In this document: piece after piece, positions 34,397 to 51,061 of the stretch
Numbering within the stretch: the stretch's first letter is position 1
Layout: every line of letters begins with the position of its first letter
Source: an uncultured Gemmatimonadales bacterium
GTDB lineage: Bacteria; Gemmatimonadota; Gemmatimonadetes; Longimicrobiales; RSA9
Assembly: GCA_963783305.1 (NCBI GenBank)
Contig: CAWAMW010000002.1
Span: forward strand, 672,001 to 736,000
DNA: 64,000 bases
Direction of reading: 5' to 3'
Program-made: the position numbers and the translations under genes
The notes under the pieces: generated by a model
Seen by the model: only the letters and a program-made list of their open reading frames with translations
Databases searched by the model: none
What the model was told of the DNA's origin: nothing

Positions 34397-34914
34397 GGCT
34401 GCCTCCCTTCGTCCCACGCCTGTACCTCCACCGCGCCCGCACCCTCCAGGATTCTGCGCGCGTCGCCGCCCTTCCCTGATGGCGCGTCCACGAGCACACC
34501 GAAATTGCCCGCCGAGAACGACGGGTCGTACGCCAGGTCCCTGCCCGGAGGGCCGAGGCGAGCGTTGATGAAGAGTCCCAGCACCGTCGACAGGGCGCCG
34601 AACAGGATCGTCATCTCGAACGCGATCACCACGAAGGCCGGCAGCGCGATGATCGGCTTCCCGCCCGTGATCAGCGGCCAGTCCAGCGATGTCCAGATGG
34701 CCAGGGCGAAGCCGGTGGCCGCACCCGTGAGGCCGCCCACCAGCGTAAACAGCCGCACCGGGCTCTGCGGCCGGTGGAGCGCGTGCTCCAGATCGTGCTG
34801 CGGCAGCGGAGAGTACGACTCCAGGTCGGTCATGCCCGCCGCCCTCAGACCTTCGATGGCCTCGACCGCGGCGTCCACCTCGTGGAACACCCCGAGATAC
34901 CGTCCCCCGCTCAT
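34393..34914 (-). CDS. actD: Alternative complex III subunit ActD (DUF3341)
   Basis: YSPLP, 2 TM, DWPLITGGKP, AFEMTILF motifs; ATGA-coupled to actC. Confidence 0.9.
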   Translation of the reverse strand: MSGGRYLGVFHEVDAAVEAIEGLRAAGMTDLESYSPLPQHDLEHALHRPQSPVRLFTLVGGLTGAATGFALAIWTSLDWPLITGGKPIIALPAFVVIAFEMTILFGALSTVLGLFINARLGPPGRDLAYDPSFSAGNFGVLVDAPSGKGGDARRILEGAGAVEVQAWDEGRQP

Positions 34915-36347
34915 CGTCCCTCCTCCCCGGCGCCACTCTCGTCGGGGTTCGGCTCCTGACGCTCCAGGTACTCGCGCCCTTGGCCCGTCGCTCCCCGAAG
35001 CCCGCGGCGCGGCGTGGGCAGGACCTCCTTCAGCTCCGCCACCGAGACCGCCGGCAACACACGCATGAAGAGCAGGAACCACATGAAGAACCAGCCGAAG
35101 CTCCCCACCATGATCCCCATCTCGACCCAGCTCGGCTTGTACACGTTCCACTGCCACGGCTCGTACTCGTGGCTCAGGCTGGTGACGATGATCACGAACC
35201 GCTCGAACCACATCCCGATGTTGATGAAGATCGTAATGGTGAACAGCGCCGGGATATTGGTTCGGACCTTCTTCGACCAGAGCAGCAGCGGGATCACGCT
35301 GTTGCACGCCAGCATGATGGCCGCCGCCCACCAGTACCGTCCGCTGAGGCCGGCCACGATGTACTGCCCCTCCGCGTGGGCCGGCTCGTGGCTGTACCAG
35401 ACCAGGAAGACCTCGGTGATGTAGGCGTACGTCACGATCATGCCCGTGAGCAGGATCAGCTTCGACATGGCGTCGAAGTGCTTGGGCGTGAAGTAAGCCT
35501 CGAGGCCGAAGATCTTCCGGATCGGGACCAGCAGCGTGATCACCATGGCGATCCCGCTGAAGATGGCCCCGGCGACGAAGTAGGGTGCGAAGATCGTGGA
35601 GTGCCAGCCGGGCACGATGCTCATGGCGAAGTCCCATGACACGACCGAGTGCACCGAGAGCACCAGCGGAGTGGCGAGGGCGGCCAGGTAGAGGTACGCG
35701 CGGTTGAAGTGCAGCCACTGCCGGCCGCTCCCCTTCCACCCGAAGCTCAGGACCGTGTAGAGCTTCTTCCGCCACGGCACCGTCGTCGAGTCACGGGCCG
35801 CCGCGATGTCGGGGATCATCCCGATCACGAAGAACGTGGCGCTGACGATCAGGTACGTGCTGATGGCGAACACGTCCCAGACCAGCGGCGACTTGAAGTT
35901 GGGCCAGAGCATCCGCTGGTTCGGGTACGGCATGAGCCAGTAGAAGATGAACGGCCGCCCCAGGTGGATGATGGGGAAGAGCCCCGCCGTCATCACGGCG
36001 AAGACGGTCATGGCCTCCGCGGCGCGATAGATGGACTGGCGCCAGCGCGCGCGGAACAGGAAGAGGATCGCCGAGATCAGCGTCCCGGAGTGGGCGATAC
36101 CCACCCAGAAGACGAAGGTGGTGATGTAGACGCCCCAGGAGATCGGGTTCATCAGACCCGTCATCCCGATCCCGAGATACAGCTGGGTGAAGAAGCTGAA
36201 CGCCAGCAGCCCCACGCCCGACACGGCGATCGCCAGCAGGATCCAGTAGCCCTTCCCGGGCTTGCTCAGGAGCTTCAGGACGTCCGTATTGACGTCCGAA
36301 TAGCTGGGAACGTTCGGGTGCGTCTCCGACCGGATCACTGGGGCCAT
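34911..36347 (-). CDS. actC: Alternative complex III NrfD-family quinol-binding subunit ActC
   Basis: FVFWVGIAHSGTLISAIL, RAAEAMT, HLGRP, SPLVWDVFA, SVHSVVSWDFA, GMWFERF motifs. Confidence 0.96.
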   Translation of the reverse strand: MAPVIRSETHPNVPSYSDVNTDVLKLLSKPGKGYWILLAIAVSGVGLLAFSFFTQLYLGIGMTGLMNPISWGVYITTFVFWVGIAHSGTLISAILFLFRARWRQSIYRAAEAMTVFAVMTAGLFPIIHLGRPFIFYWLMPYPNQRMLWPNFKSPLVWDVFAISTYLIVSATFFVIGMIPDIAAARDSTTVPWRKKLYTVLSFGWKGSGRQWLHFNRAYLYLAALATPLVLSVHSVVSWDFAMSIVPGWHSTIFAPYFVAGAIFSGIAMVITLLVPIRKIFGLEAYFTPKHFDAMSKLILLTGMIVTYAYITEVFLVWYSHEPAHAEGQYIVAGLSGRYWWAAAIMLACNSVIPLLLWSKKVRTNIPALFTITIFINIGMWFERFVIIVTSLSHEYEPWQWNVYKPSWVEMGIMVGSFGWFFMWFLLFMRVLPAVSVAELKEVLPTPRRGLRGATGQGREYLERQEPNPDESGAGEEGR

Positions 36348-39300
36348 CAGTGCGCCGCCCCTTCCGCCTCGTCCGTCGAGACCTTCTTCAGGTACACCAC
36401 CGCAGACTGGGTATTAAGCTCCTCGAACACCCGGAAGCCTCGACTCGATTCCACCACCTGTGCCACTCTCGAATTCGGGTCCTCGATGTTGCCAAAGACG
36501 ATGGCGTTGCCGGGGCAGGTCTCGGCGCACGCCGGCCGGATCTCTCCGTCACCCACGGCGCGTCCCTCCACCCGCGCCTGGTGCTGGGCGCCGCGGATCC
36601 GCTGCACGCAGAACGTGCACTTCTCCATGATGCCCTTGCTCCGAACCGCGACCTCGGGGTTCAGCTGCCAGTTGAGCGGCTCCGGCCACTCGTAGGTGAA
36701 GTAGTTGAAGTACCGCACCTTGTACGGGCAGTTGTTCGCGCAGTACCGCGTGCCGACGCAGCGGTTGTAGACCTGACCGTTCAGCCCGTCCGGCGTGTGG
36801 TAGGAGGCATACACCGGGCAGACCGGCTCGCACGGCGCGTTCCCGCACTGCTGACACATCATCGGGAGGAAGGTGGTCTTCCGGTGCGTGGCGCCACCGT
36901 CCATCTCGTGGACGGCCGCCTCATCCTCTTCCTCGAAATAGCGCTCGATCCGCATCCACTGGATCATGCGACCCTGGGCCACCAGCTCCGGCCCCACCAT
37001 CCCGATGTTGTTCTCGGCCTGACACGCGGTCTGACATGCGCTGCAGCCAATGCACCGCTCCAGGTCCACCGCCATGCTCCAGCGCGGCTGGACCTCACTG
37101 TACTCCCCGTAATGCGTTCCCGGGGGCGGGTAGTCCGCGGGGCCTCCCTGCACGCGCAGCGGCGCGAAGCCACCGGCGCCCTGAAGGCTCGGGATCACCG
37201 TCTCGGTGGGGTGGACCGTCGGGCCGTGCCCGATTTCCTCGTGGGGCAGCTGCCCCATGAGACCACCCTCCGGCGTCGGACCGGGCTCAGCGCCGCCGAC
37301 CGGCACCTGCCCGGCGACGATCCCGCCGGCCACGGTGTCGTACTTCCGAGCCTCCTCCAGCGACACCGTCTCCAGCAGGTGTCTCCCGCTCACGTCGTAC
37401 TGGTCGGACGAGAACGGCTGCCGCTCCCAGCGGCCCGTCGGCGTGACATCCGCCGTGGTCTGGATCCACACCAGCCCACCGGACTCCTCGTCGACCTGGG
37501 GTGCGAGGAGGCGGATGGCGTTCACGCCCCTGCCCTGGGCATAGCGGCCCATGCGCTCGTGCCCCTGGCCGAGCTGGATGGCGATCGTGTCCTGGCGCAC
37601 CCCCGGGTGCAGCCAGACGGGCAGCTCCACGGAGCCGTAGGGAGTCGAGACCTCCACGATGTGCCCGTTGTCCAGGCCGTACTCCTCGGCCGTGCGCGGG
37701 TTCATTTCCAGGACCGAGCCCCACGTATGCTTCGTGACGGGATCAGGGAGCTCCTGCAGCCACGGCCGGTTGGCCAGCCGTCCGTCGTAGAAGCGGTAGG
37801 ATGGGTAGACGACCAGCGCGAACTCGCCTTCGCCGCCGAGCGTCGGGACGTCCAGCGAAAGCTCGCCGGCACCCGCCCCGGCCCCCAGCGTCTGGGGCTG
37901 GCTGTACTCGTCCGTGACGATGACGCCGTTCCGCAGCGCGCGCGTCCACCACTCATCGAAGCTCCCCGCACCGCCCGCGGTGCCCTGGAGCTCCTGCCAC
38001 TGCTCGCGCAGGTAGTCGTAGAAGGTCGTGGCCCGTGTCGGGAGCGCTGCGTTGACCCGGCGCGCGACGCTCAGCAGCACGTCCCCCGTCTGCTTCGTGT
38101 CGAAGACGGGGGTCATCACCGGCTGGATCAGCGAGTGGACGCCCGGGCGCGGCTCATAGTCGCCCCACGACTCCAGGAAGTGGTGGTCCGGGAGGAGGAG
38201 GTGCGCCTGAGCCGACGTCTCATCCAGCCAGGGCGAGAACGATGCGACGAAGGGCACGCGGGCCAGCGCCGCGGCCACACGCTCGTGATCGGGGAGGTCG
38301 TAGAGCGGGTTCGGTCCATGGACCAGCAGCGCCGCGACGCGTCCGCCCTCCATCTCCTCCAGGAGCGCGAGCATCTCACGGTAGCCGGCGACCTCCGGCT
38401 CGTCCTGGCCCAGGCGGACCGTCGTGCCCAGGTTCCCTGCGGCCTCGTTCAGCGCAGCCACCGCCGTGGCCAGGGTGGTCGCTGCGGCCGATGTGGTCTG
38501 TACGCCGGGGCCCACCGCCAGCGACGGGCGGCTCGCGAAGGCGTGGGCGGCCAGCCGGAGCTGGTCGATGTCCACACCAGCCGTCTCGGCGAACGCGTCC
38601 GGGTCGACAGTGCCGATCATGGCCGCGGCCGCGCCACCGCCACCGCCACCGTTCTCATCGAGCACCAGGCGCGCCAGCGCGAGCGCCACCAGGTGCTCGG
38701 TGCCAGGGCGCGGCGCGATCCACTGATCCGCGTTCAGGTCGGTCAGCGACTGGTGCGGCGTCACGGCGATGAACTCGCCGCGCTTGCCAGCCCTGTACGC
38801 GTGCCCTTCCACATAGCCGTGGGAGTAGTCCACGGGCGAGAGCCACGTCTCCATGAAGTCGGCGCCGAACGACACCACGACCTCGGCCTGCTCAAAATCG
38901 TAGATCGGCAGCGCGGCGCGGCCGTACAGGCGACGATGGGCTTCCCGGATCGGCGCGTGGCCGAAGGATTCGTAGCGGACGCGGCGGGCGCCCACCGCCC
39001 GGGACCATTCGTCCAGCAGTCGGTCCATCGAGCCGGGTTCCGGGCGCGACAGCACGACGGTGCGGCCCCGGGCCCGCTGCAGCGCCTCCGCCAGCGACTG
39101 CTCCGCCCGGTCCCAGCTCACCTTCGACCAGCTGTCGCCGGAGGGGACCATGGCCTGCGGGATCCGGTCCGGGTCGTAGAGCCCGTGCAGCGATGCCTGC
39201 CCGCGCGCGCACAGCTTCCCGTGCGAGATCGGAGAGGCGGGGCTGCCCTCGGCCTTGATGGCGCGACCCTCGCGCGTCTCCAGCGTCATTCCGCACCCGG

Positions 39301-39547
39301 CCGGGCACTCCCGGCAGGTCGTGCGGTAGCGAGTGGAGACGCCCGGAACGATCTCCTCGGGCTGTACCAGATACGGGATCAGCCGGTCGGGCTCCACGGC
39401 ACACCCCGTCGCTGTGGCACCCACGCCCGCGACGCCGAGGACCTTGAGGAAGTCCCTCCGCTCCATCCCGTTTCCGTTCTCTTCCTGCGGGCCAGCGCCC
39501 TCAGAGCCGTTTACGATCGGCAACACACCCTCACGATTGTTCGACAT
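36347..39547 (-). CDS. actB: Alternative complex III ActB (molybdopterin-oxidoreductase-like plus Fe-S fusion)
   Basis: Tat motif ERRDFLK; CRECPAGC; C-terminal CIGCSACQTAC, CQQCGNAPCEPVCP, CVGTRYCANNCP, KCTFC. Confidence 0.95.
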   Translation of the reverse strand: MSNNREGVLPIVNGSEGAGPQEENGNGMERRDFLKVLGVAGVGATATGCAVEPDRLIPYLVQPEEIVPGVSTRYRTTCRECPAGCGMTLETREGRAIKAEGSPASPISHGKLCARGQASLHGLYDPDRIPQAMVPSGDSWSKVSWDRAEQSLAEALQRARGRTVVLSRPEPGSMDRLLDEWSRAVGARRVRYESFGHAPIREAHRRLYGRAALPIYDFEQAEVVVSFGADFMETWLSPVDYSHGYVEGHAYRAGKRGEFIAVTPHQSLTDLNADQWIAPRPGTEHLVALALARLVLDENGGGGGGAAAAMIGTVDPDAFAETAGVDIDQLRLAAHAFASRPSLAVGPGVQTTSAAATTLATAVAALNEAAGNLGTTVRLGQDEPEVAGYREMLALLEEMEGGRVAALLVHGPNPLYDLPDHERVAAALARVPFVASFSPWLDETSAQAHLLLPDHHFLESWGDYEPRPGVHSLIQPVMTPVFDTKQTGDVLLSVARRVNAALPTRATTFYDYLREQWQELQGTAGGAGSFDEWWTRALRNGVIVTDEYSQPQTLGAGAGAGELSLDVPTLGGEGEFALVVYPSYRFYDGRLANRPWLQELPDPVTKHTWGSVLEMNPRTAEEYGLDNGHIVEVSTPYGSVELPVWLHPGVRQDTIAIQLGQGHERMGRYAQGRGVNAIRLLAPQVDEESGGLVWIQTTADVTPTGRWERQPFSSDQYDVSGRHLLETVSLEEARKYDTVAGGIVAGQVPVGGAEPGPTPEGGLMGQLPHEEIGHGPTVHPTETVIPSLQGAGGFAPLRVQGGPADYPPPGTHYGEYSEVQPRWSMAVDLERCIGCSACQTACQAENNIGMVGPELVAQGRMIQWMRIERYFEEEDEAAVHEMDGGATHRKTTFLPMMCQQCGNAPCEPVCPVYASYHTPDGLNGQVYNRCVGTRYCANNCPYKVRYFNYFTYEWPEPLNWQLNPEVAVRSKGIMEKCTFCVQRIRGAQHQARVEGRAVGDGEIRPACAETCPGNAIVFGNIEDPNSRVAQVVESSRGFRVFEELNTQSAVVYLKKVSTDEAEGAAH

Positions 39548-39557
39548 CAGCTCGCCG

Positions 39558-40079
39558 TCAGTAGTGGCAGACGGTGCAATCGGTGCGAACCTCGCGCGTC
39601 CGATGGCATTCGAGGCACCACCCCATGTTCAGGTCCTGCGCCTCCTCGATCACCGCCATCGACTCCACCTCGCCGTGGCATTCCTGGCACTCCAGGTCCT
39701 CGGCGTTCACGTGGATCATGTGCGGGAAATGGGCGTGATCGGGCAGGTCGTACACCCGGACCCACGGGATCCGACGACCCTCGTTCCAGTACGACGTGAG
39801 GATCCGCACCCCCGGGCTGTCCGCCGCCACCATGGGGACCCCGCCGGGGATATGACACCCGGCGCACACCTCGACCGCCGGGAGCCCGGCGTCCACCGAG
39901 CGGTCCGCGCTCGAATGGCAGTACATGCACGGGATCTGGTTCGTGCCCACGTGCACGTCGTGGGGGAACGGGATCGGCTGCTCCGGCGCGGTTCCGATCC
40001 GGCTGCCGGCCGCGAATACGCCAGCCCCGACGAGCGCCAGCAACGCGACTCCTAGGAGTATGAGAGTCCCTCGTCCCAT
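39558..40079 (-). CDS. actA: Alternative complex III pentaheme cytochrome c ActA
   Basis: N-terminal TM, QPIPFPH, five CxxCH motifs (CMYCH, CAGCH, CQECH, CLECH, CTVCH). Confidence 0.95.
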   Translation of the reverse strand: MGRGTLILLGVALLALVGAGVFAAGSRIGTAPEQPIPFPHDVHVGTNQIPCMYCHSSADRSVDAGLPAVEVCAGCHIPGGVPMVAADSPGVRILTSYWNEGRRIPWVRVYDLPDHAHFPHMIHVNAEDLECQECHGEVESMAVIEEAQDLNMGWCLECHRTREVRTDCTVCHY

Positions 40080-40200
40080 CCACATTTCGGCGTGAGGGGC
40101 CGCGTAGTGGGCCCGACTACAGTATGACCGGGGGTTTGCCCCACCGGTCAGGAAGGCGGCAAATGTGATACGGGTCCAGCATGGGCGCAACCCCGGGCGA

Positions 40201-40803: not shown

Positions 40804-42119
40804 CTTGGTCGTTGGAACGTATCCGCCGATCGAGCATGTGCAAAGTGCCGATCGGCGTGATGCTCCAGGAGCGCGAGCGCGGGGACTTCCGCCGCGGATC
40901 GCGACGCTCCCGGCCATTCACCGCCACTGGTGTTCTCCCCAGCGACGGGCTCGCGGTCCCCCTGTAACGCGAGGACCAGTGCGACCCCGGCGATCCCCGC
41001 CACCAGCAGGGCGCCCGGCAGCGGCCGGTCCGGGGGGCCCAGCGGTTCCGGTCGTGGGAGCAGGATGAAGCAGGCGGCGAGGAGCACGCCCGTGGCGACG
41101 AGAATCCAGGGGACCACGTTTCCGATCCACGGCGCGGGCGATGCCGGGCGCAACGCGAGGTCGAACAGCACGGTCAGCAGCACGAAGAGGACGAGCCCGG
41201 CGGTGACGGGAGTACCGCTCCGGCGCCCGCTGGCGGGATCGAAGGCGCGGGTGATCAGCAGCAGCGCGGCCAGGTGTCCCACGGCCATGAACCCGGCCAC
41301 CACGCTTCCGTCCAGCCAGTGGCCAAGCAGGGCAGAGGCCGTGATCAACCCCGCCAGCAGCAACGTCACCATCCGGCCGCCGGTAGGACGGCGAAGCAGG
41401 AGCGCACCGCCGAACGCTGCGGCCCCGGCGACCCCCACCAGTGCGGCGGCCAACGGGTACTCCGCCCCCGTCCAGCGGGCGATCACGGGCGCAACGCCGA
41501 GCAGGTGCAGGTCGAGGAAGAAGATGCCCCCGAGAGCAAGTCCACCCCTCAGCCTTAGCCCGCCGGAGCGGCGCTCCAGCTCGTTCCGTCCCCCCGAGCG
41601 CGCCGGGTCCCGGCGCCACAGGAGGACCGCCGCAACGAGGCCGAGGGAGAGGATCACCTGGACCGGAAGCCAGCTCGGGCGCAACGAGATGTCGTGGCCT
41701 GACCCGGCCGTGCGCAACAGCTGGTCGGCCACGAGACCCAGGATGAAGCCGGCTCCGAGCGCTCTTCGGCCCACCAGGCCCACCGCCCACTTGAGGAACA
41801 TGGCCGCGCACGCCAGCACCAGGGCGCCACCGAGCGCGCGTGTCACGAGCGACGGGTGACCGAGCGGCAGCCGGAATACCGCCGCGCCCACGGCGGCGAC
41901 GACCACGGCCGTGTGGCGGTCGAGCCAGCGGGCCAGGGGGAGCAGGGGGGCGAAGAGCGCGAGGAGAGGGAGGAGCGCGATGGCCGCGGGCCCGAGGTGG
42001 AAGGCCGGCGTCAGGGCGTCCCGGGTCAGGATGAATAGCGACGCGAAGAACGCCCGCTGCCCCTGAGCGAAGAAGAGAGCGACGAGAGCCGCCATGAGGA
42101 GCGGCCAGGCCCGACGCAT
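40800..42119 (-). CDS. Polytopic membrane protein of unknown function (about 12-13 TM)
   Basis: Continuous hydrophobic helices; 4 nt after the kinase stop and coupled to the next gene. Confidence 0.75.
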   Translation of the reverse strand: MRRAWPLLMAALVALFFAQGQRAFFASLFILTRDALTPAFHLGPAAIALLPLLALFAPLLPLARWLDRHTAVVVAAVGAAVFRLPLGHPSLVTRALGGALVLACAAMFLKWAVGLVGRRALGAGFILGLVADQLLRTAGSGHDISLRPSWLPVQVILSLGLVAAVLLWRRDPARSGGRNELERRSGGLRLRGGLALGGIFFLDLHLLGVAPVIARWTGAEYPLAAALVGVAGAAAFGGALLLRRPTGGRMVTLLLAGLITASALLGHWLDGSVVAGFMAVGHLAALLLITRAFDPASGRRSGTPVTAGLVLFVLLTVLFDLALRPASPAPWIGNVVPWILVATGVLLAACFILLPRPEPLGPPDRPLPGALLVAGIAGVALVLALQGDREPVAGENTSGGEWPGASRSAAEVPALALLEHHADRHFAHARSADTFQRPR

Positions 42120-42123
42120 CCCG

Positions 42124-44238
42124 TCAGTCCACGGGGTCGTTCGACGATGTCAGGGCCCGCTGGACCTGCTGGTCACGGGTGGCCGGACGCACCCGCAACG
42201 GCAGGTCGATGTAGAACGTGGACCCCTCGCCGTAGGAGCTCTCCACGCGGATGTGCCCCTCCAGGAGCGCCACCAGCTTGCGGGTGATCGACAGTCCCAG
42301 GCCCGTGCCGCCGTACTCCCGGGTCGGGGATTGGTCGACCTGGCGGAAATCGTCGAAAATGGTCTCCACATCCTCGCTCTTGATGCCGATACCGGTATCG
42401 GCCACCGAGATCCCGATCCGGTCGTCCCCGATCCGGGTCGCCTCGAGCGTCACGCCGCCCTCGGAGGTGAACTTGATGGCATTGGACAGCAGGTTCAGGA
42501 GGATCTGCTTGATCTTGGTCCGGTCGGTGAACATGTCCGGTAGCTCGGGCTCCGCCTCCACCTCGAGGTCGAGCCTCTTCTCCCGGGCCAGTGGCTCCAC
42601 GGCCTCGCGCAGCTCGCCCACCATCTGACGTACCGAGACCTCCTCGAGGTACACCGGCATCTTGCCGGCCTCGATCTTGGACAGGTCGAGAATATCGTTG
42701 ATCAGGTCGAGCAGGTGCTGCGACGCGGTGTTCACCTTGTCGAGCCCCCCCTTCTGCTTCTCCGTCAGCTCGCCGTAGATCTCTTCCCGCATCAGGGAGG
42801 TGTAGCCGAGCACAGCGTTGATGGGCGTCCGGAGCTCGTGGCTCATGCTCGCCAGGAACTCGCTCTTCAGCCGAGACGCTTTCTCGAGCTCCCGACTCTG
42901 CCATTCCAGGCGACGGTTCCGCTCCGCCAGCTCCACCGTAGCCAGCCGGATCCGGTCCTCCAGCTCTTCGTTCAGCTGCTTGAGCTCCCCCGCCAGCCTC
43001 TCGTTCTCCACCACCTGCGTCAGGTCGTGGATCACGCTCACAATGGCCGTGGGCTCGCCCCGCGCGTTCAGGATCTTGCTGCTCACCACCTCCACAGGGA
43101 GGACGATCTCGTCCTCCGGGTCCTGCAGATCGATCTTCTCCACCCGCCGGTCTTCCGGCCGGAGGAGGAAATCGCTCATGAGGCTGGTGAACTTGGTGTC
43201 ATTCGCCCGAACAGCCCGGCGGTGGGCGGACTCCGGGGTCGTATCGGGGGGCGCCTCGAACAGCCGCTCGCCCTGGCGGTTCATGAGGATGATGTTCGAA
43301 TGGTCGTCGGTGACCAGGATCGGGTCACCCACGTTCTCCAGCGTCGCGTTCAGCCGCTCCCACTCCTCCCGGACCCGCTCCTCGGCGGTCCGGGACCGCT
43401 GGAACTGCGCCTCCAGCTCGGTCACCGCCCGCTTCAGGTCGGTGATGTTCCGGAGGATCGACAGGTATGCGCCATCGCTCTTCGCCTGCGGGACCGGCGT
43501 CGGCAGCACCTCGAACAGCAGGTCCGAGCCGTCCGATGGGTCCACGAGGTTCAACTCCCGCGGCTTGGTGTGCGTGGTGCTGATCACGGACTGCGTCAGG
43601 AACGAGCTGAACAGCAGGTTGTTCAGCTGTACGGCCCGGCGGCGGCCCTCGCTGTCACCGGTGTCCGCGGAGAAGAGCTGGTCCGCCCGATCGTTGGCAA
43701 GCATGATGTTGTTGGTGGCGTCGGTGAGGACCACCGGGTCGGGCAGGCTGTTGACGATGGTGGTCAGGAGCTCGCGCTCCTCGGCCAGCCGTGCGCTCCG
43801 GGCCTTGAGCTCGCGAACCACCCGGATCCGGTCCAGCGTCTCCGCGTGCTCCCGGAAGACGCCGGCGAGCCGATCGACCCGGTCCGTCTCCGCCGTCCCC
43901 TGCACCAGGATCGCGCCCCACACCTCGGGGCGTCCAACAGGCAGAACCAGCGCCTCTCCGCTGTCCATGGCGGGGGCCGGAACCCGCGCCTGCTCACCGG
44001 TCCGGAGGGCATCGCCCAGAGGCGTATCCTCCTGACGAGCCACCTCGAGCATGGACGCGGTCACCTGCTGACTGTGACCGATCCCCACCACACGCAAGCG
44101 ACCCCGGTCCCTGAACAGGACCATCCCCTGCTTCAAACCGCTGGCGGACAGCGCCCGCTCCAGCACGAGGGAAAGGCCATCGGCGGGTTCCGTGGTCTTC
44201 GCCAGCCGGTCTGCTAGACCCGGTGTCGCCGTGGCCAT
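42124..44238 (-). CDS. Soluble sensor histidine kinase (GAF-like + 2 PAS + HisKA + HATPase)
   Basis: PAS starts IVNSLPDPVVLTD and TLENVGDPILVTD; H-box FLASMSHELRTP; NLLSNAIKFT, DTGIGI, GGTGLGL; no TM segment. Confidence 0.93.
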   Translation of the reverse strand: MATATPGLADRLAKTTEPADGLSLVLERALSASGLKQGMVLFRDRGRLRVVGIGHSQQVTASMLEVARQEDTPLGDALRTGEQARVPAPAMDSGEALVLPVGRPEVWGAILVQGTAETDRVDRLAGVFREHAETLDRIRVVRELKARSARLAEERELLTTIVNSLPDPVVLTDATNNIMLANDRADQLFSADTGDSEGRRRAVQLNNLLFSSFLTQSVISTTHTKPRELNLVDPSDGSDLLFEVLPTPVPQAKSDGAYLSILRNITDLKRAVTELEAQFQRSRTAEERVREEWERLNATLENVGDPILVTDDHSNIILMNRQGERLFEAPPDTTPESAHRRAVRANDTKFTSLMSDFLLRPEDRRVEKIDLQDPEDEIVLPVEVVSSKILNARGEPTAIVSVIHDLTQVVENERLAGELKQLNEELEDRIRLATVELAERNRRLEWQSRELEKASRLKSEFLASMSHELRTPINAVLGYTSLMREEIYGELTEKQKGGLDKVNTASQHLLDLINDILDLSKIEAGKMPVYLEEVSVRQMVGELREAVEPLAREKRLDLEVEAEPELPDMFTDRTKIKQILLNLLSNAIKFTSEGGVTLEATRIGDDRIGISVADTGIGIKSEDVETIFDDFRQVDQSPTREYGGTGLGLSITRKLVALLEGHIRVESSYGEGSTFYIDLPLRVRPATRDQQVQRALTSSNDPVD

Positions 44239-44245
44239 AATGCCG

Positions 44246-44545
44246 TTATTCCGCTTCTTCCAACCGGCGCCGGAGCTCGAGGTTCTCCGCGCGCATGCGC
44301 TCCAGCTCCGCCGAGTCACCACTGGACAGGGACTGAGGACGCGATACCGAGGGCAGCGTTCCTACCGCCTCCGCATACTTGAGGTAGGTGTCGATGGCGG
44401 CCACGACGATTCTCGCCTCCACCGTCACCAGATCGATCCCCACGAGCGAGACGCGCACGTAGGCGTCGATCACTATGCCCTTGTCCAGCACCCGATCCAG
44501 AACGTCGATGAGGCTGGTTCCTGCGGGTGCCCTTTCTACCGCCAT
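44246..44545 (-). CDS. gvpA: Gas vesicle structural protein GvpA with C-terminal extension
   Basis: [52 protein letters not shown] closely matches the GvpA core; GGAG RBS. Confidence 0.95.
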
Positions 44546-44594
44546 TGGCCCTGCTCCGGGTTTATTGGATTAAACGACATCAGCATTCCCGCCA

Positions 44595-44912
44595 CTACCC
44601 GCGCAGCTGATGGTCTTCCAGCGCTTGCAATCTTCGTGACAATTCGTCCAGCTTCTCGCCGAGACCCGCCCCCACCTCATCCCTCTTGGCGTACGTGGAG
44701 AGGCGCGGGTCCGTCTTCCACCAGTCCATGCCGACCTCTTCCGCCTTGTCCAGCGAACAGACCAGCAGGCGGATCTGGATCGTCAGAAGCTCGACATCGG
44801 CCAGCTTGATCCGGATGTCACCGGCAATCATCAGGCCTTTGTCCAGCACGCGGTCGAGCACATCGACCAGTCCCTGGGACCGCTGTGGTCCCAAATCGTA
44901 TCGCTCCGCCAA
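44595..44912 (-). CDS. gvpJ: Gas vesicle protein, GvpA/GvpJ family
   Basis: [54 protein letters not shown] start. Confidence 0.88.
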   Translation of the reverse strand: MAERYDLGPQRSQGLVDVLDRVLDKGLMIAGDIRIKLADVELLTIQIRLLVCSLDKAEEVGMDWWKTDPRLSTYAKRDEVGAGLGEKLDELSRRLQALEDHQLRG

Positions 44913-44930
44913 TTCAGTATCCCCTAGGGT

Positions 44931-45317
44931 TCAGAGCAGCCGGCCCAATGGACCGAGATCTATGTTCAGGTCCTCTTTCTCGAGCCCGAAGGCCTCCCGC
45001 ACCATATCGAGGCGCTCCTCGAGGCGCATGAGCGCCAGGCCCAACTGCTCCATTTCGTCATCGCTCAGGGTCCCGCCCTCCATCCGCCGCACCGCCTGGT
45101 GCTCGAGCACCTGGCGGATGAACTCGACCAGAGTGAGCACGAGCTGACTGACTCCGCTCTCGATGTCGTCCGGCGAGGCCTCGAGCCTGGACGGCAGAGA
45201 CGGCGCCACATCTCGCAGTTCCGCCGCGAGCCGCTCCATCTCGGCTTTGATTTCTGTGGCCTCAGCCGATCCGGCGTCCAGCGAGTTCCGGGCCGCGCGG
45301 GCGTCGTCAGCTGCCAT
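44931..45317 (-). CDS. gvpK: Gas vesicle protein GvpK
   Basis: LVLTLVEFIRQVLEHQAVRRMEGGTL..EQLGLALM...DLNIDLGPLGRLL signature. Confidence 0.95.
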   Translation of the reverse strand: MAADDARAARNSLDAGSAEATEIKAEMERLAAELRDVAPSLPSRLEASPDDIESGVSQLVLTLVEFIRQVLEHQAVRRMEGGTLSDDEMEQLGLALMRLEERLDMVREAFGLEKEDLNIDLGPLGRLL

Positions 45318-45981
45318 CCTGAACGAATCCGTAGGGGGGCCAGGGACCACTGGTCACGAACCGGAGCTCGGGGCGGTGGTCGGTGAACCTGTGTACTCTA
45401 TCGCCGTAATTGCCAGTATCATGCCGCCCCACCAGGTGCGCGATGGCCACGATACCATCGGTGCCGCCGGGGCGGACGCTGTGGGCGCGGACCAGCGGGC
45501 CGAGGAACGACAGCAGTTCTGCGGCGATCTGGGCCCCGCGAAGGTGTGCCCGCTGGAGCGTCTCCTCGCGCCGCGCCAGCCCCTCCAGGTACGCTCGCCC
45601 ACTGCTGCGGTCGGGCGGGACGGGATCGTGCCGCTCCGGGTCCATGACCCGCACGCCGAATTCCAGGGCGTCCCGCACGCGTTCGAGTGAGGCCTCCAGC
45701 GTCGCTCGCCGGCTCTCCAGCCCATCGCGCAGCTCCGTCTCGTCCACGTACCACTGGCCGAAGCGCATGGGGAGCGGGGTCCGCACCGTGGAAGACGCTT
45801 CCACCACGGCGTTGTGGGCCCGCACGCGCTCGAGCGAGGCCCCGGGGGCGCTGTCGAGCGTTGCGACCCAGGTCCGGAAGCCGGCGATGTCAAGCGCCCG
45901 AACGGCGGCGCCCTCGATCCCCTGGATCGACTGCGGCTCCGGGTGGTCCGCGGCGCCCACGGCGTAGAGGTAGAGTCCCAT
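45307..45981 (-). CDS. gvpL: Gas vesicle protein, GvpL/GvpF family
   Basis: YLYAV, AHNAVVE, PLPMRFG, EFGVRV, SGPWPPYGF motifs. Confidence 0.9.
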   Translation of the reverse strand: MGLYLYAVGAADHPEPQSIQGIEGAAVRALDIAGFRTWVATLDSAPGASLERVRAHNAVVEASSTVRTPLPMRFGQWYVDETELRDGLESRRATLEASLERVRDALEFGVRVMDPERHDPVPPDRSSGRAYLEGLARREETLQRAHLRGAQIAAELLSFLGPLVRAHSVRPGGTDGIVAIAHLVGRHDTGNYGDRVHRFTDHRPELRFVTSGPWPPYGFVQDGS

Positions 45982-46202
45982 CAGTCTTCCCGCGGGTCGT
46001 CGCGCGGCCGGGCTGGCAGCGCCCTCTCACTCAGCGCTTCCATTCCGCTCAGGAGGAGGCGGAGCTCCAGGTAGACCAGGTCGACCCCCGCTACGCTGAT
46101 GGTCACGTCGCCCCGGAGTACGACGCCCCGGTCGAGGACGCGGTCCACGAGCTCTACGAGTCGTACGCGGTCGTCGAGGGGACCCACCTCGTCGTTGCTC
46201 AT
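45981..46202 (-). CDS. gvpS: Small gas vesicle protein, GvpA family (GvpS-like)
   Basis: C-terminal 73 aa of ORF 45981..46790: LVELVDRVLDRGVVLRGDVTISVAGVDLVYLELRLLL; overlaps both neighbours. Confidence 0.85.
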   Translation of the reverse strand: MSNDEVGPLDDRVRLVELVDRVLDRGVVLRGDVTISVAGVDLVYLELRLLLSGMEALSERALPARPRDDPRED

Positions 46203-46975
46203 GTTTCGCGCATGAAGCGGTAGGGCGCCCACGGGCCGGTCAGGCCGACGGTGAGTCCGAGCGGTTCCAGTCGCTGGCGCTCGGTGGCCAGCTGGTCGAA
46301 GAGCGGCTTCTCCTCGTCCCGGTCCACCAGGAGCGCGACATTGAGCGTGGTGGGCTCCGCGTCCGACGGGGGATCGAGCGTAACCACCTCGCGGGCCCGT
46401 GGTCGGATGGTATCCAGGAGCTCCCGCGCCATGCGTTGCGCGGCGCTGCGCCCCTCCGTCCGGGCCAGGTCCTTCCGCTTCTTCTCCAGGAGGAACCTCT
46501 TCCCGGGGCTCGCCTCCTCGATCTCCCGGTCGAGGCGGCCCACGTCCTCCGAGACCTCGCCGAGGTGCGCGAGCAGCCGAGCGGCGTCGGAGCCGATGCG
46601 AAGGTCCCACTCGCGGAGCCCATCCAGGCGCTCCAGCTCCTCCTGGATCCGGCCGGCCTCCCGCTCCATCGTCGCCCGCACCGAGGCCTCTCCGCTGAAC
46701 AGGGTGAGGAGCCGCGAGGGGAGAATGCTCGCGTGGTCGACGAACCAGGCCACGACCTGCTCGTGACTCAAACCCTGTTCCGCCATCCACTCCACATCCG
46801 CGCAGTTGCGCTCCAGCGCCGGACCGCTGAACTCGTCCGAGTGGATCCGGCTCATGACCGCCGTGAACCCCGGCCCGGTCAGCCGCTCGACCGGAGCATC
46901 GGCCACGCCCAGCAGCCCACCGGAGGGCAGCTGGGTGGCGTCGGGGACGAACCCGTAGAGGTAGATCACGCTCAT
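46199..46975 (-). CDS. gvpL: Gas vesicle protein, GvpL/GvpF family
   Basis: IYLYGFV, HEQVV, ILPSRLLTLF, EWDLRI, PGKRFLLEKK, TGPWAPYRF motifs. Confidence 0.9.
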   Translation of the reverse strand: MSVIYLYGFVPDATQLPSGGLLGVADAPVERLTGPGFTAVMSRIHSDEFSGPALERNCADVEWMAEQGLSHEQVVAWFVDHASILPSRLLTLFSGEASVRATMEREAGRIQEELERLDGLREWDLRIGSDAARLLAHLGEVSEDVGRLDREIEEASPGKRFLLEKKRKDLARTEGRSAAQRMARELLDTIRPRAREVVTLDPPSDAEPTTLNVALLVDRDEEKPLFDQLATERQRLEPLGLTVGLTGPWAPYRFMRET

Positions 46976-48702
46976 GCGACGCGCTCCCAGGCGCGGGTGA
47001 ACTCTGTCAGGGCGGTGGCCCCCTTCGGCTCCTCCACCTCCGGCGCCCGCCAGGTGGCGGTATCGGGGCGGGGCTCGACGGGTCCGTTCGCCCGGTTGAC
47101 CAGGACGCCCGTGAGCGGCAGGCCCAGCGATCGGATCCGCTCCACCAGTCGCCCCGTCTCCGCTCGCGCCAGCGCCTCATCCAGCGTCACGACCACGAGC
47201 GCAGTGCGGGCCGGGTCCATGAGCCGCTCACGGAGGGTCCGGAACCGGCGGGCGAACCGTAACAACTGCTCGGCGGGAGCGTCAAGATCACCGATGGCGC
47301 CGTATTTCAGGAGGATCCGCATGATTCGTCGCAACCAGTCCATGGCGAGCCCCGGCATGGCGACCAGCCGGAGGAAATGCCCGGTGGGCGCACTATCCAG
47401 GACCACGCGAGTGCCCGTCTCGACCTCTTCCGCCAGCCGGCTCACGCTCAGGAGCTCGTCGAGACCCGGGGGCGCCAGCTGCCATAGCGACTCGACCACC
47501 GCCCGGTCGAGTCGGGCAGCCCGGTCGAGCCCAATGGCCGCGAACGCGCGCTCGACCTCCTCTCGGTAGTGCGACCGCAGCCGGTCCAGCTCCGGCGCCG
47601 CGTCCAGCTCCCGCACCGTCAGCCCAGGGACCACCGACCCGTCCAGGACATCGAACAGCGACCCCGCCGGATCCGAGCTCATGAGCAGTACCGGCCCCTC
47701 CGCCGCAAGCCTCACTGCGGTTGCGCTGGCGCACGTGCTCTTCCCCACTCCGCCCTTCCCCGCGAAGACGATCAGCTCGCGCTCGATCTCGGGCGGGAAC
47801 CGCGCACCCGATGCGGCGGCACCGGCGCTTCCTCTCCCACGCGACGGGCGCTCGGTCGACGCCCTGCCCCGTCCGCTGCCGCTCCACCACTCCCGAAGCG
47901 CACGGCAGCCGGTGAGGCCGCTGTGGTACGGCAGGACGAGGTCGGCCCGCGGACGGCCCCGGTCGACGGCGACGGTGGCGGCCACGTGGAGATCGCGGGA
48001 CGCCAGCGCTTCCAGCAGCCGGACGGTCTCCGCTCGCTCCACCTCTCCGCCGCCCGTCACCACCACGAAGTCGGCGGCGCCGACCGCCTCCTCGAACGCG
48101 GCCATCTCCGCGGCGAGCGTCTCCAGCTCCGACTCCACGCTCAGCCGAACCTGCTGCCCCACCAGCGCCGAGGCGACCGTGTCGGCTTTACCCGCCATCG
48201 CATCGAATACGTCGAGCCAGCTCCGGACCACCCCTGGCGTGTCCAGAAGGCGCATCAGGTGCCCCGTCGGAGCCGTATCCACGACCAGGCGTGTCCCGAT
48301 CAGCTCGACGATCCGGAGCGCGCCCCCGATCTCATCCAGGCCGGGCAGCGCGGCCGCCAGCAGGCCGTCCGCATCGTCGGTATCCAGGTAGGTGCCCCGG
48401 TCGATGAGCTCCCGCAGCCCCGGGGCCATGGCGGCCATGCGCGATTCGGCCAGCCGCGGCGCGTCCAGCTCCTCCAGCGTGAGGGTCCCGCCGCACGGAG
48501 AGGGCTCCGGATCGGCTCCGAGCGACCGGCCGAACAGGTCGCCGAGGGAGTGCGCGGGGTCCGTAGAGACGAGGTGAGTGGCGGTCCCGGCATCCGAGAG
48601 GGCGAGCGCGAGTCCCCCCGACACCGTCGTCTTTCCCACCCCACCCTTCCCGACCACGAACGTGATCCGTCCGGTGAGCCGCCCCAGCAGCTCGCCGCCC
48701 AC
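46972..48702 (-). CDS. Tandem (two-domain) ArsA/GET3-family SIMIBI ATPase inside the gas vesicle operon
   Basis: Two deviant Walker A motifs (GKGGVGKTT, GKGGVGKST), STDPAHS / SSDPAGS, PGLDE x2, DTAPTGH / DSAPTGH; GTG 1 nt after the gvpG stop, ATGA overlap with gvpL. Confidence 0.92.
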   Translation of the reverse strand: MGGELLGRLTGRITFVVGKGGVGKTTVSGGLALALSDAGTATHLVSTDPAHSLGDLFGRSLGADPEPSPCGGTLTLEELDAPRLAESRMAAMAPGLRELIDRGTYLDTDDADGLLAAALPGLDEIGGALRIVELIGTRLVVDTAPTGHLMRLLDTPGVVRSWLDVFDAMAGKADTVASALVGQQVRLSVESELETLAAEMAAFEEAVGAADFVVVTGGGEVERAETVRLLEALASRDLHVAATVAVDRGRPRADLVLPYHSGLTGCRALREWWSGSGRGRASTERPSRGRGSAGAAASGARFPPEIERELIVFAGKGGVGKSTCASATAVRLAAEGPVLLMSSDPAGSLFDVLDGSVVPGLTVRELDAAPELDRLRSHYREEVERAFAAIGLDRAARLDRAVVESLWQLAPPGLDELLSVSRLAEEVETGTRVVLDSAPTGHFLRLVAMPGLAMDWLRRIMRILLKYGAIGDLDAPAEQLLRFARRFRTLRERLMDPARTALVVVTLDEALARAETGRLVERIRSLGLPLTGVLVNRANGPVEPRPDTATWRAPEVEEPKGATALTEFTRAWERVA

Positions 48703-48703
48703 G

Positions 48704-49174
48704 TCAGTCCTCGTCGAAGCCGAAAACGATGTCGATCTCGGCCTCGCCTGGGTTGGCGACCGAAGGGCGCCTGGGCGCATCTTCACCGGCGGGCTCGCCG
48801 TCCTCCGCCAGGTGCTCCGTGGACTTCACCCCGCCCTCACCCGCCCCGCCCATGTCCGCCCCGCCCATGTCCGCCTCGGCTTCGCCCTCACCGGCGACCC
48901 GCACCAGGCCGCCCGATGTGGCCATTCCGAACTGCTCACGCCACTCACGGACCTGCCGGAGCCGCCGCATGAGCGAGGCCTCCCTTTCGACGTACTCGTC
49001 GTCATCGATGTCGCCCAGCTCCAACTCCATCTGGAGCTCCATCAGATCGCGCTTCACCACGCTGTCATCGGTGAGCTCCGTCTTCACCGCGCCCTCCACC
49101 TTCTCCAGGGAGAAGCGGGCCAGGTAGGACGGACCCGTGACCGGCCAGAACAGGAGGTGCTTCAGAAGTCCCAC
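48704..49174 (-). CDS. gvpG: Gas vesicle protein GvpG with acidic C-terminal tail
   Basis: LLFWPVTG..., ELTDDSVVKRDLMELQMELELGDIDDDEYVEREASLMRRL pattern; position right after gvpF. Confidence 0.85.
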   Translation of the reverse strand: MGLLKHLLFWPVTGPSYLARFSLEKVEGAVKTELTDDSVVKRDLMELQMELELGDIDDDEYVEREASLMRRLRQVREWREQFGMATSGGLVRVAGEGEAEADMGGADMGGAGEGGVKSTEHLAEDGEPAGEDAPRRPSVANPGEAEIDIVFGFDED

Positions 49175-49175
49175 G

Positions 49176-49991
49176 TCAGGCGTCGGCTCGCTCGAGCTTG
49201 AGCTTGATGTTCACGAAATTGTACGGCGGCCACGGGCCCGTATACTTGAAGGAGAGCTCGTCCTCGTACTTCCGGCTCAGCGACTTCACTACCTCGTCGA
49301 ACTCCTGCTCCCGGCTCCGCTCCACGAGATAGGCCGCATTCAGGATCATCCGATCGCCGATCGGCTTGTTCGATCGACTCGCGATGGCATACGGCTTCAG
49401 CGACTGGTGGATATCCATGACATACGTGTTCGCCGCCTCCTCCAGCCCGGTCTCCACGAGCCGGCCGAGCTGCATGCGGGCGAAGTACGTGGAGCTCTGC
49501 TCGTTGGAGGTGATCTCCTGTTTCAAGCGATGGATCTCCTCGTCCTCCTGCTCCAGCCGCGCCACCACCTTGTCCCGGTCCCACAGGACCTTCAACCCGA
49601 ACTCGATCTTGTCGCGCATCTTCTCGAGCACATCGTCGAACGCGCGATACGTGGATTTCAACAGCTCCACGATATCGTCGCGCGTTCGAAAGATGGTGCC
49701 GAACGACATGGGGATCACGGTGTATTCACGCATGACCGTCTCGTTGACGAGCTCGTGGGCCAGCACGTTCTCACGGGTCGGGTCGTAGATCCGGATCGGC
49801 GTGTCGCTGACCACGGCCGCCAGATCCTTGTGGTGGACCGTGTACACCCGGTTCGCCTCGCCGCCGATCCCGATGGACCCGAAACTGTGGTCGTCCTCCG
49901 TCTTGATGATGCAGTACACGTACTTTCCCTCTTCCTCGGTGGAAGAGACCTCGCCGTGGACGGAGGATTGTGGCGGAGTGATGTCTGGCAT
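49176..49991 (-). CDS. gvpF: Gas vesicle protein GvpF
   Basis: KYVYCII, DLAAVVSD, NVLAHELV, TVIPMSFGT, EFGLKV, MILNAAYLV, YTGPWPPYNF motifs. Confidence 0.93.
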   Translation of the reverse strand: MPDITPPQSSVHGEVSSTEEEGKYVYCIIKTEDDHSFGSIGIGGEANRVYTVHHKDLAAVVSDTPIRIYDPTRENVLAHELVNETVMREYTVIPMSFGTIFRTRDDIVELLKSTYRAFDDVLEKMRDKIEFGLKVLWDRDKVVARLEQEDEEIHRLKQEITSNEQSSTYFARMQLGRLVETGLEEAANTYVMDIHQSLKPYAIASRSNKPIGDRMILNAAYLVERSREQEFDEVVKSLSRKYEDELSFKYTGPWPPYNFVNIKLKLERADA

Positions 49992-50093
49992 CGTCAACTC
50001 GATTTCGGGGTGGCACAGACCTGCAACAGTGAGACGAACCTCCAGCTACCCGCAAGGATATCCCCGGTGTGGGTGGCTTCGCGGGCCTCGGGA

Positions 50094-50109
50094 TGCCAAC
50101 ATCATGCCG
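50094..50109 (-). promoter_or_regulatory. Candidate sigma-54 promoter of the gas vesicle operon
   Basis: Minus strand CGGCATGATGTTGGCA = GG-N10-GC with GGCAT-G at -24; about 100 nt upstream of gvpF. Confidence 0.4.
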
Positions 50110-50131
50110 AGTCGGTGGCCGGGGCGCGGAT

Positions 50132-50147
50132 CGGCGCAGGCCTTGCA
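50132..50147 (+). promoter_or_regulatory. Candidate sigma-54 promoter of the lipoprotein-kinase operon
   Basis: CGGCGCAGGCCTTGCA = GG-N10-GC with TTGCA; 56 nt upstream of ATG 50204. Confidence 0.5.
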
Positions 50148-50203
50148 TGGTCGCACGGCTCGTCGAACGCCGCACGGAGCCATGCCCTGAGGGCTCGGTA
50201 CAG

Positions 50204-51061
50204 ATGAAGAGGAGCGAGATGAAGCGCGCCACATTACTGCTGGTTTTCGCCGTCGCGACGGGCATCGGCGGCTGCGCGACGCTGACGGCGAAGCGCTCGG
50301 AGGACCAGAACGCGCGGTTCCGGCTCGAGCGCGGCCTGACCGCGCTCGACAGCGGCGCCTATACCGCCGCCTTCGACGACCTTGCCTGGGTCTATTCGCA
50401 GTGTACCGGCCGGGAAGCGGCCGGGCAGGCGCTCCTCGCCCTCGCCGCACTCGAGCTGGATCCACGGAACGAGCGCGCTCGTCCCGCCGTCGGGACGGAC
50501 CTCCTGGGTAGGGCCATCACGGGTGCCGAGGCTCCCCGATGGGCGCGGCCGCTGGCGGAAACGAGCTTCCTGACGGCGCTCGCGCTGGGAGCGCCCCATC
50601 CGGCCCCCCCAGCCCCGTCCGGGCCAATGGTCGAGCGGACGGACGCCGCGACGGGCACGGCCGCGCTGAGCGACGCCACGACGGACACGGCCGCACTGGA
50701 GACAGGCGCACCGGGCACGAGCGCCACGGACGCCCACCGTGCCCCCGTCAGCCATGATCCGGATGAGCCGGCCACCACCGCCGCTCAGGCGCTGCCCCCA
50801 CGGGGGATGGCCGCGGGAGCCGGCGGGGGGGAGGCGGCCTACGGGTGCGGCCCGGTGGTCGAGGCGCGGGATACCGCCACCGCCGTGCTCCCGGAGCTGC
50901 CGGGCCCGTCCATGGCCGCGCTCCTGTCCCGCGCGGAGTCCAGGCGAGATTCGCTGACGGTGACGACCGAGCTGCTCCAGCGGGAGCTGATATCGCTCCG
51001 GGAGCAGCTGGCGGCCACGCGGGCCGAGCTGGAGCGGATCCGCAAGACACTCAAGCCGTGA
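50204..51061 (+). CDS. Lipoprotein with helical domain, low-complexity linker and C-terminal coiled coil (QseG/YfhG-like architecture)
   Basis: Lipobox IGGC; LALAALELDPRN helices; LQRELISLREQLAATRAELERIRKTL; directly upstream of a HAMP kinase. Confidence 0.7.
   Translation: MKRSEMKRATLLLVFAVATGIGGCATLTAKRSEDQNARFRLERGLTALDSGAYTAAFDDLAWVYSQCTGREAAGQALLALAALELDPRNERARPAVGTDLLGRAITGAEAPRWARPLAETSFLTALALGAPHPAPPAPSGPMVERTDAATGTAALSDATTDTAALETGAPGTSATDAHRAPVSHDPDEPATTAAQALPPRGMAAGAGGGEAAYGCGPVVEARDTATAVLPELPGPSMAALLSRAESRRDSLTVTTELLQRELISLREQLAATRAELERIRKTLKP

Follow-up and report, generated by a model that had tools for sequence, protein, structure and literature searches.

The gas-vesicle operon studied here occupies positions 44246-49991, on the minus strand, of a 64,000-nucleotide (nt) stretch of DNA from an uncultured Gemmatimonadales bacterium (contig CAWAMW010000002.1); this whole stretch is called the window below, and coordinates count within it. 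The operon has no gvpN and includes a gene for a two-domain ATPase of the ArsA/Get3 family that, judged by its sequence, is a Get3-type pseudo-dimer and not an arsenite pump. The linkage of such ATPases to gas-vesicle genes is real and widespread, and the ATPase is neither a substitute for GvpN nor required by the clusters without GvpN. By analogy with characterized Get3 proteins, the balance leans slightly towards a chaperone, optional and driven by ATP, of the hydrophobic proteins of the GvpA family.

Genes were identified with the curated cut-offs of Pfam, and the NCBIfam models were used as a second call. All nine minus-strand proteins encoded in 44246-49991 scored above the Pfam cut-offs and the nearest NCBIfam models agreed with them, in such a way that the order given in a preliminary description of this DNA, gvpF-gvpG-ATPase-gvpL-gvpS-gvpL-gvpK-gvpJ-gvpA, was found to be correct. 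The genes are the following, in operon order.

49176..49991, minus strand: gvpF, 271 amino acids, ATG start (Pfam GvpL_GvpF, 265.4 bits)
48704..49174, minus strand: gvpG, 156 amino acids (Pfam GvpG, 52.7 bits)
46972..48702, minus strand: gene of the tandem Get3/ArsA-family ATPase, 576 amino acids, GTG start (Pfam ArsA_ATPase, two stretches, 226.7 bits)
46199..46975, minus strand: gvpL copy 1, 258 amino acids (Pfam GvpL_GvpF, 160.4 bits)
45981..46202, minus strand: gvpS/gvpM-like gene of the GvpA family, 73 amino acids, ATG at 46202 (Pfam Gas_vesicle, 58.3 bits)
45307..45981, minus strand: gvpL copy 2, 224 amino acids (Pfam GvpL_GvpF, 128.1 bits)
44931..45317, minus strand: gvpK, ATG at 45317, alternative upstream GTG at 45350 (Pfam GvpK, 109.5 bits)
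44595..44912, minus strand: gvpJ, 105 amino acids, TTG start (Pfam Gas_vesicle, 59.4 bits)
44246..44545, minus strand: gvpA, major shell protein, 99 amino acids (Pfam Gas_vesicle; NCBIfam GvpA, 109.3 bits for a cut-off of 100)

The presence of gvpA together with gvpF/L, gvpG, gvpK, gvpJ and gvpS/M identifies a gas-vesicle cluster, and the three matches to the GvpA family found in the whole genome all lie within it. The nearest NCBIfam models of the gvpJ and gvpS products are GvpJ and GvpM, respectively, both below their cut-offs, and the gvpF product shows 63-80% identity to GvpF of 15 related clusters. For the ATPase, the GTG at 48702 was adopted as the start, as in the protein-database entry; a longer open reading frame (ORF) extends to 48786, which would mean an overlap of 83 nt with gvpG. 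If the likeliest start of each gene is taken, the junctions measure +1 nt (gvpF/gvpG), +1 nt (gvpG/ATPase), -4 nt (ATPase/first gvpL, with the sequence ATGA), -4 nt (first gvpL/gvpS), -1 nt (gvpS/second gvpL), -11 nt (second gvpL/gvpK), +18 nt (gvpK/gvpJ) and +49 nt (gvpJ/gvpA). The first seven genes therefore overlap or lie 1 nt apart, and the ATPase is translationally coupled on both sides, both as had been claimed.

Two SIMIBI domains had been seen in the ATPase, and both are confirmed by the two stretches matched by Pfam ArsA_ATPase and by the nucleotide motifs of each half, which keeps a P-loop (GKGGVGK[TS]), a switch I (DPA[HG]S) and a switch II (D[TS]APTGH). The score against PF02374 (226.7 bits) exceeds the cut-off of 24.3, and that against the GET3/ArsA/TRC40 subfamily model TIGR00345 (244.5 bits) exceeds its cut-off of 135; the NCBI equivalog model of ArsA, TIGR04291, gave 132.6 bits, below its cut-off of 650. 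The nearest named homologs come from metagenome bins of Gemmatimonadetes and Longimicrobiales. Among the structures in the Protein Data Bank, the best sequence match is ArsA1 of Chlamydomonas reinhardtii (5zme, 5zmf), likewise a tandem pseudo-dimer, with E values against 5zme of 6e-42 for the single protein and 1e-73 for a profile, and true ArsA and Get3 rank behind it. ArsA1 differs in being a eukaryotic protein of 687 amino acids with longer inserts and membrane-protein clients, and HMMER gaps the query in the groove region. Yeast Get3 aligns nearly gap-free to the N-terminal half, from switch II through the helices of the client groove, and the identity to plasmid-encoded ArsA is 31% at most.

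An ArsA/GET3 phylogeny had been proposed as a check, and a maximum-likelihood tree was built from 35 tandem proteins chosen for contrast: that of the window, 7 from related genomes, 8 from other phyla that are gvp-linked, 15 adjoined by arsD, arsB or acr3 and 4 without such a context. The group of 15 includes four plasmid ArsA references, all of them encoded in arsD-arsA operons and with an arsB or acr3 gene in the vicinity. At a branch supported 100/100, the 16 proteins of gvp context make up one side and all 15 proteins of ars context lie on the other, supporting that the window's ATPase belongs to a gvp-linked clade apart from the ArsA of ars operons; the gvp-type proteins of Acidobacteriota group with it. 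A warning of the program notes that long branches meet at this 100/100 split, and as the set took in tandem proteins and no single-domain Get3, the tree shows separation from ArsA and not a single origin. Those of the 80 loci from outside the phylum (see below) with a single-domain or truncated match, as well as one related ATPase that is split in two (L119, see below), were left out of it.

The preliminary description had also suggested looking for the loss of the metalloid ligands Cys113, Cys172 and Cys422 (enterobacterial numbering). These columns hold Cys in 19/19 ars-type proteins and in 0/16 gvp-type ones; the window's ATPase presents Leu, a gap and Gly, and its profile alignment to 1f48 agrees, so that all three cysteines are absent. 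The segment from switch II to AET also separates both types, with 78-83 residues in the N-terminal half and 73-74 in the C-terminal half of the 16 gvp-type proteins (78 and 74 in that of the window), versus 67 and 52-58 residues, respectively, in the 19 ars-type proteins, and an insert like the TRC40 insert of Get3 was found in both halves of the window's ATPase. An AlphaFold2 model, built from an alignment of 82 homologs in which 31 columns are invariant with identities down to 34%, reached a pLDDT of 89.6 and a pTM of 0.91 and predicts that a pair of long helices follows each switch II (helices 146-181 and 189-209, and 440-466 and 474-495). In comparison with ArsA (E. coli R773, 1f48; L. ferriphilum, 9nbl/9nbw), the fold, the tandem layout, the P-loop and the DTAPTGH motif are alike, whereas the window's ATPase differs in the missing metalloid cysteines, the longer helical segments, the separate clade and the lack of ArsD, ArsB or Acr3 nearby. 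It is because of its motifs, absent cysteines, segment lengths, separate clade, NCBIfam scores and best match to ArsA1 that we assign the protein, from its sequence, to the Get3 type.

The CxxC zinc clamp is absent from the window's ATPase, which has only Cys70, Cys266 and Cys324. This absence extends to its clade, as CxxC was found in none of the 8 Gemmatimonadota gvp-type proteins, in contrast to the gvp-type proteins of other phyla, where 6/8 carry one CxxC per half (L010, L083, L009, L017, L020 and L030, from Rokubacteria, Zixibacteria, Acidobacteriota and Chloroflexota) and the other two (L012 and L014) have none. To our knowledge, no Get1, Get2 or Get4 homologs are to be expected in bacteria.

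The surroundings of the ATPase gene and the rest of the genome (4.35 Mb in 17 contigs, 95.96% complete) were then searched for partners of arsenic resistance. The claimed lack of arsB, acr3, arsC, arsD and arsR in the window was borne out, with none of them among its 43 other ORFs at E ≤ 1e-5. The ATPase is the sole ArsA-family gene of the genome, apart from two weak P-loop matches, and ArsD was not found in the genome by profile search. An Acr3 arsenite efflux gene (446.6 bits, G000:C2:233341-234333) lies on the same contig around 485 kb from the gvp cluster, and arsenic efflux in this genome appears to work without an ArsA.

The operon had been described as having no gvpN, gvpC or gvpO. For gvpN this holds for the whole genome, where the best match reaches 25.3 bits for a cut-off of 266.8, so that no gvpN over the cut-off is present elsewhere to supply the function, which had been raised as a possibility; GvpO and GvpC gave no match in the genome either, with models that matched none of the control genomes (GvpC being a short repeat family), and for these two genes the claim stands as a lack of matches with no working control. 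The absence of GvpN extends to the phylum: in a sample of 401 genomes, 30 have GvpA-family genes, and 0/30 show GvpN over the cut-off (best match, 40.8 bits), with a search that gave 330-388 bits in four control genomes outside the phylum.

GvpA presents a C-terminal extension of around 35 residues that ends in ENxELRRRLE and is kept in 16/16 aligned orthologs; it might have a shell-stiffening role where no GvpC was found. GvpG is also longer, with its 156 amino acids, than most relatives (around 100-126 amino acids), the additional C-terminal part being an acidic, Gly/Ala-rich sequence of low complexity.

The ATPase profile was matched in 14 of the 30 gvp-bearing genomes (E ≤ 1e-15), 12 of them with a full-length tandem protein within 3 kb of GvpA matches, and two (G188 and G291) with single-domain matches on other contigs, in such a way that the ATPase is absent in 18/30; the counts of 30 and 12 each include the unpublished genome G157 and rest on it by one. 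At E ≤ 1e-40, 11 of the 401 genomes match the ATPase, all of them among the 30 with GvpA. Sixteen related clusters were compared by mapping the window's proteins on them (GvpF was not detected in L115). The ATPase is present in eight of them, always between gvpG and gvpL, although in L119 (G271:C9, 7497-9372) it is split into two ORFs of 430 and 215 amino acids, the split reflecting a frameshift or pseudogene or, alternatively, a fault in the assembly; in G171, of the same genus, the ATPase is a single frame of 645 codons. Of the eight clusters without the ATPase, three show the complete F-G-L-S-L-K-J-A series, namely L104, whose family is that of the window, L109 and L111; four are shorter and without the second gvpL, and L106 has another arrangement. 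Mapped onto a GvpF tree, the distribution of the ATPase takes six changes to explain, and well-supported branches force at least three of these; the ATPases of Gemmatimonadota group in a single clade in line with the family codes (98/97). Because of both facts, repeated loss of the ATPase is the simplest history.

Outside the phylum, 80 ArsA-family loci were considered among the matches listed, found by generic P-loop and STDPAHS patterns, which is not an unbiased survey. Among these matches, gvp genes flank 8/80 loci, including the best-scoring ones, and ars genes flank 15. The eight loci belong to Acidobacteriota (four), Rokubacteria, Planctomycetota, Chloroflexota and Zixibacteria. The linkage of the ATPase to gvp genes thus spans at least six phyla and, within the phylum, 12/12 ATPase-bearing genomes have it near GvpA genes, so that the non-conservation that would have spoken against the preliminary description was not found. 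True GvpN was detected in the genomes of 4/8 of these outside loci among the matches listed, twice apparently in the same cluster. The anticorrelation with gvpN that had been proposed as a check does not appear, as GvpN is uniformly missing in the phylum and coexists with the ATPase in those four outside genomes. Regarding the distinct gas-vesicle subtype with a GET3-like ATPase that had been proposed, the Get3 type of the ATPase and the absence of GvpN stand, and the ATPase as a subtype-defining element is not supported, as it is present in only 12/30 genomes.

Two-domain ArsA homologs within gvp operons were reported by Castillo & Saier in 2010 (PMC2963123), in their clusters 4 and 6, from Bacteroidetes/Chlorobi, a delta-proteobacterium, cyanobacteria and an acidobacterium, so the linkage, which the preliminary description took as possibly undescribed, has been in print since then. 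The same work states that the arsenite cysteines are lacking outside true ArsA, proposes that the ATPase energizes a step of gas-vesicle biogenesis, and lists for the acidobacterial cluster genes L/F, J, K and M alone and no gvpN. The ATPases of that study and that of the window are alike in having two domains and around 600 amino acids, within a gvp operon and with no arsR or arsB near; they differ in that Gemmatimonadota are outside the 2010 sample and in that most of its clusters hold gvpN and hsp20. Its sequences (Anabaena, Nostoc, Pelodictyon, Polaribacter, Geobacter and the acidobacterium) lie outside our ATPase tree.

Farkas, De Laurentiis & Schwappach (2019, PMC6593721) described bacterial tandem Get3 proteins with a TRC40 insert in both domains, argued that they are chaperones and stated that the tandem chain does not need CxxC. 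The window's ATPase shares with them the two Get3 domains per chain and the insert in each. Those forms come from Cyanobacteria, Myxococcales and some Proteobacteria, with no link to gas vesicles made in the available text, and all but the cyanobacterial ones have CxxC, in contrast to the window's ATPase. As for GvpN, both proteins are ATPases of gvp clusters, but GvpN is an AAA+ protein of unrelated fold and family. It was said to be conserved in all clusters, along with gvpA, gvpC and gvpFGKL (Pfeifer 2022, PMC9501494), and the window's cluster departs from this with the 25.3 bits given above, so GvpN is not universal, contrary to that statement. In the gvp clusters of Streptomyces coelicolor, ordered gvpO-A-F-G-Y-Z-J-L-S, no gvpN or gvpC is listed in the gene table of PMC5839063; they resemble the window's cluster in belonging to a soil bacterium, in this lack and in a similar F-G ... 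J, L, S, K content, and differ in having gvpO, gvpY and gvpZ, no ArsA-family gene, and gvpA as the first gene, which is the last one in the window.

How the ATPase could help in assembly can be proposed by analogy with Get3/TRC40 and with Chlamydomonas ArsA1, the latter described as a factor for tail-anchored proteins. According to Iburg (2024), chaperoning is presumed necessary for GvpA, GvpJ and GvpS, which are hydrophobic. When ATP binds, the pseudo-dimer would close, and the groove formed by the inserted helices would cover a hydrophobic segment of one of these three proteins or, alternatively, the N-terminal hydrophobic stretch of GvpG; hydrolysis would then release the segment at the growing vesicle. 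Assembly would gain in yield or fidelity from such a chaperone but would not depend on it. This optional character agrees with the 18/30 gvp-bearing genomes that lack the ATPase, with the three collinear clusters without it (L104, L109 and L111), with the changes counted on the GvpF tree and with the split copy in L119. It also agrees with the vesicles that formed in mammalian cells given the Anabaena genes gvpA and gvpNJKFGWV and no ArsA homolog (Hurt 2023), so that an ArsA homolog is not needed at least in that system. When the ATPase (82-row alignment) was modeled as a complex with GvpA (16-row alignment) and two ATP, the score was 0.00 for a mark of 0.32, controls not having been run, which counts neither for nor against binding.

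Several points weigh against the assignment of the ATPase as a Get3-type accessory chaperone. The fold search bears out an ArsA/Get3 fold, but the fold alone does not split the subtypes, as Foldseek placed closed ArsA (TMq 0.68) above ArsA1 (TMq 0.60-0.61), with Get3 also listed, in a ranking that favors full-length tandem chains by length and cannot separate Get3-type from ArsA-type proteins. The N-terminal half of the window's ATPase and that of its closest relative, L112, are without the Asn of the VNR-type motif, which we take to be an adenine contact, and without the segment that bears CxxC in other gvp-type proteins; because of these two losses, one nucleotide site of the window's ATPase may be impaired. 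Repeated loss of the gene with the rest of the cluster intact could mean that the ATPase contributes little or nothing. No paper on gas vesicles in Gemmatimonadetes was found by title and abstract. A literature search, with subscription-only papers outside it, found no experimental test of a gvp-linked ATPase.

Other explanations have to be weighed against these data. Replacement of GvpN by the Get3-like ATPase as the energy source for shell growth, which would define a distinct assembly pathway, draws on the phylum-wide absence of GvpN over the cut-off in searches whose control works, on the intact nucleotide motifs of the ATPase and on published work, which regards GvpN as necessary, in the systems examined, for growth beyond small bicones. 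We consider it unlikely because 18/30 GvpN-less genomes are also without the ATPase, including a fully collinear cluster of the same family, and because the ATPase coexists with GvpN in 4/8 outside genomes among the matches listed, as well as in clusters listed in PMC2963123; moreover, SIMIBI dimers and AAA+ rings operate differently. Just as unlikely is a role of the ATPase in the cell at large, as a Get3-like holdase or as a factor for tail-anchored proteins, with a position among gvp genes that is historical and with no vesicle-specific client. Bacterial Get3 homologs with inserts were proposed as general chaperones in PMC6593721, the gene was repeatedly lost while the cluster stayed, and it is the only member of its family in the genome; against this stand the 16/16 examined members of the clade that lie in gvp clusters of several phyla, the lack of any gvp-type copy outside the gvp-bearing genomes of the phylum (E ≤ 1e-40, 401 genomes) and the translational coupling on both sides.

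That the gene is a passenger, dispensable or in decay and currently without function in this genome, would agree with the patchy distribution, the split copy in L119 and the reduced N-terminal half of the window's ATPase, but it is quite improbable given an open frame of 576 codons, the conservation of P-loop, switch I and switch II in both halves, the 31 columns invariant in 82 homologs, the confident AlphaFold2 model and the tight coupling of start and stop to the neighboring genes. A positioning ATPase of ParA/MinD type that spaces or segregates gas vesicles is very improbable: the SIMIBI class and the deviant Walker A are common to both, and weak NCBIfam matches to ParA and MinD were found over the P-loop region, but these matches span around 35-45 residues and lie far below the cut-off, the full-length family is Get3/ArsA, and the structural neighbors are ArsA, ArsA1 and Get3. 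As for a true arsenite-pump ArsA that happens to sit in the operon, the two domains and around 580 amino acids, the annotation of homologs as arsenite-transporting ATPases and the top fold match to closed ArsA would fit it. This candidate was rejected on sequence and its probability is close to nil, considering the absence of Cys113, Cys172 and Cys422, the TIGR04291 score, the identity of at most 31% to plasmid ArsA, the separate clade, the lack of adjoining ars partners, the lack of ArsD in the genome and the distance to Acr3. The accessory chaperone thus remains the explanation that we favor, at the modest strength stated at the beginning.

Downstream of gvpA, two additional features were found.

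42124..44238, minus strand: gene of a PAS sensor histidine kinase, 704 amino acids (Pfam PAS, HisKA and HATPase_c)
42078..42094, minus strand: terminator-like hairpin 3' of the kinase gene (consensus match only)

The ATG of the kinase gene lies 7 nt past the gvpA stop, and a homolog with 40-64% identity is found directly downstream of gvpA in 15/16 related loci (L104, L106-L119), at clusters both with and without the ATPase. The kinase is probably the tenth and last gene of the operon and its dedicated regulator, and would tie operon expression to an environmental signal; no response regulator that could be its partner was found. The hairpin is the only minus-strand terminator-like location in 41800-50600, where four sites were found overall for 2.2 expected. 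A scan of the same region for sigma-70 promoters gave 0 sites, and inspection by eye revealed no sigma-54 -24/-12 match upstream of gvpF.

The window has around 69% G+C and also encodes Omp85 and sigma-54 activator genes. At 34911-40190, on the minus strand, it holds genes for a fused molybdopterin/4Fe-4S protein (1066 amino acids), an NrfD-like membrane protein and a cytochrome c7-like protein, a set that looks like a module of the alternative complex III type, as would suit an organism of Gemmatimonadota or one similar to Acidobacteriota.

What is new in these data is the CxxC-less ATPase subtype of Gemmatimonadota, the phylum-wide absence of GvpN (30 genomes) and the conserved PAS histidine kinase after gvpA, whereas the gvp-linked two-domain ArsA homologs (2010) and GvpN-less clusters (S. 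coelicolor) were already known. Gas vesicles have found use as acoustic reporter genes, and the question of what keeps their very hydrophobic shell proteins in solution and gets them inserted has yet to be answered (Iburg 2024); a Get3-type ATPase that turns up again and again in gvp operons across many phyla is an evident candidate for an assembly helper. A single phylum offers collinear operons with and without the ATPase, all of them GvpN-less, as a natural comparison series, and because of these pairs the effect of the ATPase is directly testable.

A wider proposal, which we regard as doubtful, is that Gemmatimonadota, some Acidobacteriota and Rokubacteria build their vesicles without GvpN and that, in part of them, a CxxC-less Get3-type pseudo-dimer delivers the GvpA-family proteins to the shell. 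If this were true, the growth of gas vesicles would have a second, non-AAA+ power supply and a bacterial Get3 would, for the first time, have a defined client, and the ATPase's occurrence or lack among collinear operons would constitute a natural deletion series, for instance for vesicle size or yield.

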